A DNA stretch of 64,000 bases from Escherichia phage EP_H11: sequence record OP688485; one strand, written 5' to 3'. Positions 54 through 560 of the stretch are shown here, in pieces. Every line of letters starts with the position of its first letter. The first letter of the stretch is position 1. The position numbers were made by a program, and so were the translations under genes. Under the pieces are notes generated by a model. It ran no database searches. It had not been told where the DNA came from and saw only the letters and a program-made list of their open reading frames with translations.

Positions 54-560
54 ATGAATAAATCTGAAGCTCTGTTAGGACTCATCCAGTCTATCGACGA
101 GGGTTATTCCTCGGTTAAATTCTGTCCGGACTCCGATGCCTGGATAGACAGTCTTAAGCAGGTTATCTCCGAAGTCGCTGATTACGATAAGATGAACTTC
201 GATACTGGTTACGATAACCACTGCACCCTTATGTATGCTCCAGGAACTGGTGCTCCGGATGAGGGAACTATTGCTGATCTGGTGGGTAGCAAACTCCATC
301 TGAAGAATCCTCGCTACGAGATCTTCGGTGAGAATGCTAACTACCTGGTGCTAGCGTTCGATAGCGATCTGCTACAGTCGTTTAACTATCGACTCCGTGC
401 ATCTGGAGAGGTACCGTCTGAGATCAGTGCGGAATACTCTCCTCATATAACTCTGGCTAAGGAGGTAGAGAATCTGGATGTCTCTACCTTACCAGAATTA
501 CCGACCGATCTGTATTTAAACATCACTAGCGTAACTGCTGAGGAAATCAAGAATGACTAA
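54..560 (+). CDS. 2H phosphoesterase superfamily protein (LigT / cyclic phosphodiesterase / Acb1-like fold)
   Basis: 168 aa ORF with GGTGA RBS; two H-x-T-L motifs (HCTL near residue 56, HITL near residue 131) with spacing typical of 2H family; family assignment from motif memory only. Confidence 0.6.
   Translation: MNKSEALLGLIQSIDEGYSSVKFCPDSDAWIDSLKQVISEVADYDKMNFDTGYDNHCTLMYAPGTGAPDEGTIADLVGSKLHLKNPRYEIFGENANYLVLAFDSDLLQSFNYRLRASGEVPSEISAEYSPHITLAKEVENLDVSTLPELPTDLYLNITSVTAEEIKND

Follow-up and report, generated by a model that had tools for sequence, protein, structure and literature searches.

The 168-aa protein encoded at the left edge of the stretch of Escherichia phage EP_H11 analysed here (sequence record OP688485, 64,000 nt; hereafter the window) is, judged from profile comparisons and a modelled structure, a divergent but recognisable 2H phosphoesterase of the Acb1 lineage rather than of the LigT/ThpR type. 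The solved Acb1 enzymes resemble it more closely, in both sequence and fold, than other 2H families do. By analogy with those enzymes, we consider it rather probable that the anti-CBASS explanation holds in full, i.e., that the protein would be an Acb1-family enzyme acting on a cyclic di- or trinucleotide beneath an N-terminal lid. The initial annotation had placed the protein in the 2H phosphoesterase superfamily, and profile HMMs, fold comparison, and a structure predicted with confidence all uphold this assignment. The features discussed are listed in Table 1.

Table 1. Coordinates of the Acb1-like gene, its motifs and terminal segments, and the flanking ORFs in the window
Feature	Position	Strand	Basis or remark
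Upstream 99-aa ORF, last 16 codons (ending in CSYYRQEPENKLPWPW and a stop)	1..49	+	Cut by the window edge; complete in L001 and L005
Acb1-like 2H phosphodiesterase CDS, 168 aa	54..560	+	ATG start; stop codon included
N-terminal extension, residues 1-17 (MNKSEALLGLIQSIDEG), before Tyr18	54..104	+	Predicted helix at residues 3-11; candidate lid
Catalytic motif 1, HCTL (H56-L59; H56, T58)	219..230	+	Sequence and nearly invariant columns; equivalent to T4 Acb1 H44/T46
Catalytic motif 2, HITL (H131-L134; H131, T133)	444..455	+	Sequence and columns; equivalent to T4 Acb1 H113/T115
C-terminal end, ...EEIKND, including E163	540..557	+	Alignment, residue map, and tails of all 55 members
Downstream 114-aa ORF	553..897	+	ORF list; start overlaps the enzyme stop codon by 8 nt

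Upstream of the coding sequence, the nearest ATG (nt 37 of the window) is not in frame with it, and MNK opens each of the homologues P0001 (89% identity), P0002 (70%), and P0003 (41%). Thus, the start codon at position 54 is secure. An orthologue, 94% identical and found in the same gene order, is AXY86065.1 of Escherichia phage vB_EcoM_IME392 (hereafter IME392), where it is annotated as a "hypothetical protein". Comparison of the two genes gives dN 0.029 and dS 0.245; the resulting dN/dS of 0.12 indicates purifying selection on the reading frame. The ORF is intact and its length of 168 aa unchanged in three homologues down to 70% identity. In IME392, the A-run 5′ of the start has one extra A (L001, the IME392 record, 7983-8003 vs window 37-56), which brings the upstream ATG, out of frame in the window, into frame and yields a 174-aa ORF.

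A regular-expression scan of the protein finds exactly two H-x-[TS]-x motifs, spaced 75 residues apart, in agreement with the HCTL and HITL motifs that had been described as about 75 residues apart in a 168-aa product. The whole protein contains only three histidines. In a 55-sequence family alignment the nearly invariant columns are H56, T58, Y61, P130, H131, and T133, P130 directly preceding the HITL motif, and H56, T58, H131, and T133 align with the catalytic tetrad of the solved Acb1 structures. The near-invariance of these columns and their alignment with the known tetrad argue that the HCTL/HITL pairing is not due to chance.

The family lies at some distance from well-known sequences. 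A word-indexed homologue search gave only two relatives, so that an exhaustive HMM search was needed to reach the family; run with a three-sequence profile against 1.84 billion representatives, it gave 54 proteins at E <= 1e-3. The family alignment was built from 52 HMM matches, P0002, and the window protein. P0008, a protein of 3,390 aa with 12 matched stretches (E 4e-16), was left out. It consists of Ig-like repeats (Invasin_D3, Big_1) and has no Acb1 domain, and is thus a repeat-driven false positive.

Profile-HMM searches and structural comparison with Acb1 and LigT, two of the checks proposed in the initial annotation, lead to the same family. As for the first, Pfam Acb1 (PF23474) matches the 168-aa protein with E 2.9e-6 and 27.5 bits, a margin of only 0.5 bit over the gathering cut-off of 27, whereas Pfam 2_5_RNA_ligase2 stays below its cut-off (14.7 bits, E 0.033, vs 27) and Pfam LigT_PEase gives no match to the protein. 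All of the aligned relatives (55/55) match Pfam Acb1, the best at 2e-37. Single-sequence phmmer against PDB sequences found nothing, and NCBIfam and PADLOC gave no matches. In PDB, the whole-family profile matches the Acb1 of phage FBB1 (7T26, 1e-29) and a protein of Burkholderia phage BCSR5 (9Q2G, 2e-22), i.e., PDE-9, which was deposited as "Anti-CBASS protein Acb1". A second profile was restricted to the nine sequences of the window protein's own clade (31-89% identity), which avoids signal from canonical members; it still matches 7T26 at 3e-7 and 9Q2G at 1e-5, and gives no LigT match in PDB. Direct BLASTP to FBB1 Acb1 and PDE-9 is weak, with E about 1e-5 as a single comparison and 24-37% identity over partial lengths.

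In a neighbor-joining tree whose deep nodes are not resolved, the window clade is monophyletic with 85% bootstrap support and stands apart from both T4/FBB1 Acb1 and PDE-9. The clade is rare, with nine clusters at 50% identity among the 1.84 billion representatives, and its catalytic residues are invariant across members of 31-41% identity. The family profile also detects residues 472-617 of PDB 8hds chain A, the C-terminal region of a "Pam3 portal protein" (E 4e-16, or 1e-3 when the profile is restricted to the clade). This match suggests an Acb1-like domain that is fused to, or was deposited with, a virion protein.

AlphaFold2 run with a three-sequence alignment returned an unusable model (pLDDT 36.7); the 55-sequence alignment gave a confident one (pLDDT 89.8, pTM 0.83). 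Motifs and predicted fold agree with the 2H pattern, in which a pair of H-x-T/S-x motifs is carried on two pseudo-symmetric lobes of a beta-sheet fold. In a Foldseek search of PDB, FBB1 Acb1 and BCSR5 PDE-9 take the top ranks (E 1.5e-6), and the D. radiodurans CPDase and E. coli LigT come next. In the fold comparison, the highest score is obtained with Acb1 bound to cGAMP (7t27_A; 15.7, 2.0 A / 130), followed by PDE-9 (9q2y_B; 13.8, 2.2 A / 135), Usb1 (5v1m_A; 11.0, 3.0 A / 139), and the LigT-like enzymes (about 10.6-10.8, about 3.5 A / 138). That is, the model is closest to Acb1 and PDE-9, with LigT further away. The best match in BFVD is the IME392 orthologue, and the closest named proteins among the remaining matches are labelled Acb1.

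These comparisons bear on a role in RNA repair, in which the protein would be a LigT/ThpR-like RNA 2′,3′-cyclic phosphodiesterase or 2′-5′ RNA ligase that heals RNA ends such as those of tRNA cut by an anticodon nuclease. The initial annotation had offered such a role beside an anti-CBASS, Acb1-type activity. Known LigT/ThpR enzymes (E. coli LigT, 5LDI; D. radiodurans CPDase, 5H7E) do share with the window protein the 2H fold, the HxT motifs, and metal-independent chemistry that passes through a 2′,3′-cyclic phosphate, and the fold matches to structures of LigT and CPDase are significant. PHROG 755, labelled "RNA ligase", matches the protein at 5e-9, and to this may be added the weak Pfam 2_5_RNA_ligase2 match. 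The "RNA ligase" label, however, is also borne in many phage records by canonical T4-type Acb1 (57B) genes. The 2_5_RNA_ligase2 score falls far short of its cut-off, the clade profile finds no LigT structure, and the structural gap to the LigT-like enzymes is large. Moreover, a PHROG scan of 30 proteins encoded on the + strand, within the 64-kb window of a roughly 116-kb genome, revealed no RNA ligase and no polynucleotide kinase/phosphatase. We therefore regard RNA repair as quite unlikely, and of the two roles first proposed it is the anti-CBASS one that is favoured (27.5 vs 14.7 bits).

The half-bit margin of the family score and the loss of lid elements, described below, might also be taken as signs of a decaying or catalytically irrelevant 2H remnant that merely keeps its motifs. 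Such a remnant is highly improbable in view of the ORF that stays intact at constant length across homologues, the low dN/dS, the catalytic residues that are invariant within so divergent a clade, and the confident fold prediction.

The ligand pocket of T4 Acb1 provides a reference for that of the window protein. Residue roles were taken from Hobbs et al. 2022 (PMC9117128); the numbering fits T4 Acb1, as checked through the T4-like Mizar homologue, which is offset by one residue. In T4 Acb1, H44/T46 and H113/T115 are catalytic; Y12, W74, and F107 stack on the bases; E141 contacts adenine N6; and W147, the fourth stacking aromatic, belongs to a lid at the C-terminus (residues 145-152) which shuts over the ligand (PMC9117128). 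The catalytic tetrad corresponds to H56/T58 and H131/T133 of the window protein. Y12 corresponds to Y18, and W74 to F91, a position at which FBB1 also has Phe. E141 corresponds to E163, which is invariant in the clade, as is E164. F107 is replaced by S125, which lies inside a two-residue insertion (PSEISAEY), and W147 has no counterpart: the window protein ends exactly one residue short of the W147 column, and all nine clade members stop in this same C-terminal region. Thus, two of the four stacking aromatics of canonical T4/FBB1 enzymes are kept, and the C-terminal lid is missing.

Compared with T4 (gene 57B) and FBB1 Acb1 (PDB 7T26/7T27; Hobbs et al. 2022, PMC9117128), to which it is about 22% identical by structural alignment, the window protein thus lacks the C-terminal lid and has Ser for F107, and its N-terminus is 6-7 residues longer. 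The residues preceding the stacking Tyr number 17 in the window protein and 18 in PDE-9, but 11 in FBB1 and 10 in the Acb1 of T4-like Mizar. Homologues with as little as 27% identity still show the N-terminal pattern MNKA..LL.L...EGY; the helix predicted for this segment has low pLDDT (53-78) and no conserved aromatic. A precedent for a lid at this end of the protein is PDE-9 of Burkholderia phage BCSR5, in which an N-terminal lid formed by residues 1-15 replaces the C-terminal one (Doherty et al. 2025, bioRxiv 10.1101/2025.08.21.671373). The window protein shows a layout of the PDE-9 type, as follows: 17 residues before Tyr18 with a conserved helix motif, modelled at the low pLDDT just given, and no C-terminal Trp. 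By this analogy, the N-terminal helix may serve as a lid.

The two proteins also differ. PDE-9 (QRE00328.1; PDB 9Q2G/9Q2Y) is 24% identical to the window protein, whose clade the neighbor-joining tree puts elsewhere. PDE-9 has T162 and no Glu at the E141 position, where the window protein keeps its Glu. The two N-termini are loosely similar, with no aromatic in that of the window clade. Because the deep nodes of the tree are not resolved, common descent and convergence are both compatible with the shared layout.

By analogy with T4/FBB1 Acb1 and BCSR5 PDE-9, the mode of action that we favour is as follows. The protein would be a small, metal-independent 2H phosphodiesterase that acts after infection. 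Its U-shaped groove would bind a cyclic di- or trinucleotide made by the host CD-NTases of CBASS, such as 3′3′-cGAMP, cUA, or cAAA, and the conserved amphipathic N-terminal helix (residues 1-15) would close over the ligand as a substitute for the C-terminal Trp lid. H56/T58 and H131/T133 would carry out acid-base catalysis, in which a ribose 2′-OH attacks the 3′-5′ phosphodiester on the 3′ side of an adenosine that is presumably contacted by E163. A 2′,3′-cyclic phosphate intermediate would form and then a linear product, so that the CBASS signal would be gone before the effector is triggered. Substrate, lid role, and anti-CBASS effect are all proposed here from the characterised relatives.

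Family membership does not fix the substrate, since some structural groups of viral 2H phosphodiesterases cleave nothing in a panel of 18 messengers and others are narrow (Doherty et al. 2025, bioRxiv 10.1101/2025.08.21.671373). Nor can the substrate range of the window protein be read from T4 Acb1, given the absence of the Trp lid at the C-terminus and of one stacking aromatic. An Acb1-lineage 2H phosphodiesterase could have taken on another nucleotide messenger or only part of the usual set, e.g., the cyclic oligoadenylates of type III CRISPR, 2′-5′-linked species, or some CBASS signals with 2′3′-c-di-AMP spared. The consequence would be evasion of another immune pathway or of decoy-sensing systems such as Panoptes. 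This reading is suggested by the altered pocket, with no lid Trp and with Ser at the F107 position inside the insertion, and by the separate lineage (bootstrap 85) of the window clade. It is also in keeping with the way that range varies with the 2H core: PDE-9 cleaves 3′3′-cGAMP robustly and 2′3′-c-di-AMP poorly, and hence does not trigger Panoptes (Doherty et al. 2025, bioRxiv 10.1101/2025.08.21.671373). On the other hand, the protein retains the Glu that contacts adenine as well as two stacking aromatics, both of the closest solved structures cleave 3′3′-cGAMP, and nothing in the data points to any particular alternative substrate. We judge such a shift to be on the unlikely side, and prefer cleavage of a CBASS cyclic di- or trinucleotide.

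A more specific history can be put forward tentatively. The lineage of the window protein, in this reading a rare one of enterobacterial phages, may have given up the Trp lid at the C-terminus in favour of a helical lid at the N-terminus. It may also have remodelled one wall of base stacking, with F107 replaced by Ser or Ile together with the two-residue insertion, thereby narrowing or shifting its substrate range. If so, the lineage would degrade CBASS signals, spare 2′3′-c-di-AMP, and escape decoy sensing of the Panoptes type; alternatively, it would target a messenger outside the current panels.

Turning to the genomic setting, the gene had been described as standing at the start of an early block. 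That description reflects the edge of the window: nt 1-49 encode the end of an upstream 99-aa ORF, whose stop codon (TGA) is window nt 47-49. IME392 has this ORF in full, although without annotation (L001 7696-7995), and in the metagenomic contig L005 it has been called as a gene (3193-3492). The first 20 nt of the window (CTCCTACTATAGGCAGGAG) were considered as a promoter or hairpin opening the block, and this candidate was dropped, as the bases code for the 99-aa ORF. Nucleotides 1-6000 of the window are 94% identical to IME392; the gene is thus phage-encoded. A single phage record among 50,697 resembles this segment, and the patterns searched for in IMG/VR gave no relative of the Acb1-like protein.

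In IME392 and L005, the following order is found on one strand: an RNA-polymerase beta′-like gene, an ORF of 176-178 aa that gives a faint RNase H signal, then the 99-aa ORF, the Acb1-like gene, and an ORF of 114-115 aa. The junctions in these arrays are overlaps or gaps of 4-8 nt. The beta′-like gene of L005 matches Pfam RNA_pol_Rpb1_1/2. Split genes resembling those of multisubunit RNA polymerases lie just upstream in the relatives, on the same strand (L001 2230-3744 and 5623-7191; L005 1124-2680). Those of IME392 are annotated beta′ and beta, in an E. coli phage genome of only about 116 kb. The setting downstream of RNA-polymerase-like genes differs from that of T4 Acb1, which lies beside genes 1 and 57A.

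The position of the downstream 114-aa ORF is kept in L001 (8500-8844) and L005 (3998-4345). This ORF has no Pfam or PHROG match, and it could be a functional partner of the enzyme or be unrelated to it. The 8-nt overlap suggests co-transcription of the two genes, and translational coupling is possible. Scanned for consensus sites, the homologous region of IME392 showed fewer sigma-70-like and terminator-like sites than shuffled sequences did, and none between the upstream genes and the Acb1-like gene. Judging from this arrangement, the Acb1-like gene is probably internal to a co-directional array and co-transcribed with its neighbours.

The PHROG scans of the neighbours identified an NAD-dependent DNA ligase, a PinA-like Lon inhibitor, glycosyltransferase-like genes, an exonuclease, and dUTPase- and dCTP-deaminase-like genes. 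The PinA-like gene (8582-9001, +) encodes a 139-aa protein that matches Pfam Inhibitor_I24 (PinA peptidase inhibitor; 37.1 bits, cut-off 27) and PHROG 2167, "inhibitor of host Lon protease"; from these matches, it is a candidate for a second host-takeover gene of the same block. A short family X DNA-polymerase (PolX)-like gene (5272-6045, +; 257 aa), with DNA_pol_B_thumb and HHH_8 domains in a Pfam scan, adjoins a full-length NAD-dependent DNA ligase gene (6110-8053, +; PHROG 3869, 7e-89). PolX-like protein and ligase make up a repair pair that is unusual in a phage. Five tightly packed co-directional genes (9609-13002, +) match PHROGs 2114, 4603 (sialyltransferase-like), 2111, 2518, and 1962 (glycosyltransferase). 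Together with the dUTPase-like and dCTP-deaminase-like genes at 24040-25404 (+), they may make up a module for the modification of nucleotides or DNA.

As to novelty, the window gene is not among the 1,501 phage records with canonical Acb1 that tblastn from FBB1 Acb1 reaches. The IME392 orthologue AXY86065.1 is, however, among the 75 curated phage 2H phosphodiesterases in Supplementary Table 1 of Doherty et al. (2025, bioRxiv 10.1101/2025.08.21.671373). It carries no "2H PDE n" identifier in that table, and was apparently found by structure search and neither purified nor assayed in that study. A literature search on phage IME392 gave no characterisation. With AXY86065.1 already listed, Pfam Acb1 covering the protein, and a characterised precedent for the lid layout, the window protein is a divergent member of a known family; the Acb1-like gene reveals no new kind of system.

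With this gene, the counter-defence enzymes gain a member from an E. coli phage that has a putative lid-swapped Acb1 architecture. By analogy, the product annotated as a "hypothetical protein" in IME392-like phages is most probably a nuclease of immune signals, and the "RNA ligase" labels spread by PHROG 755 can be corrected. The protein may be used to test in what way the position of the lid and the residues of the pocket determine which substrates viral 2H phosphodiesterases accept, and its presence may help to predict which E. coli strains bearing CBASS or Panoptes would be open to infection by the phage.
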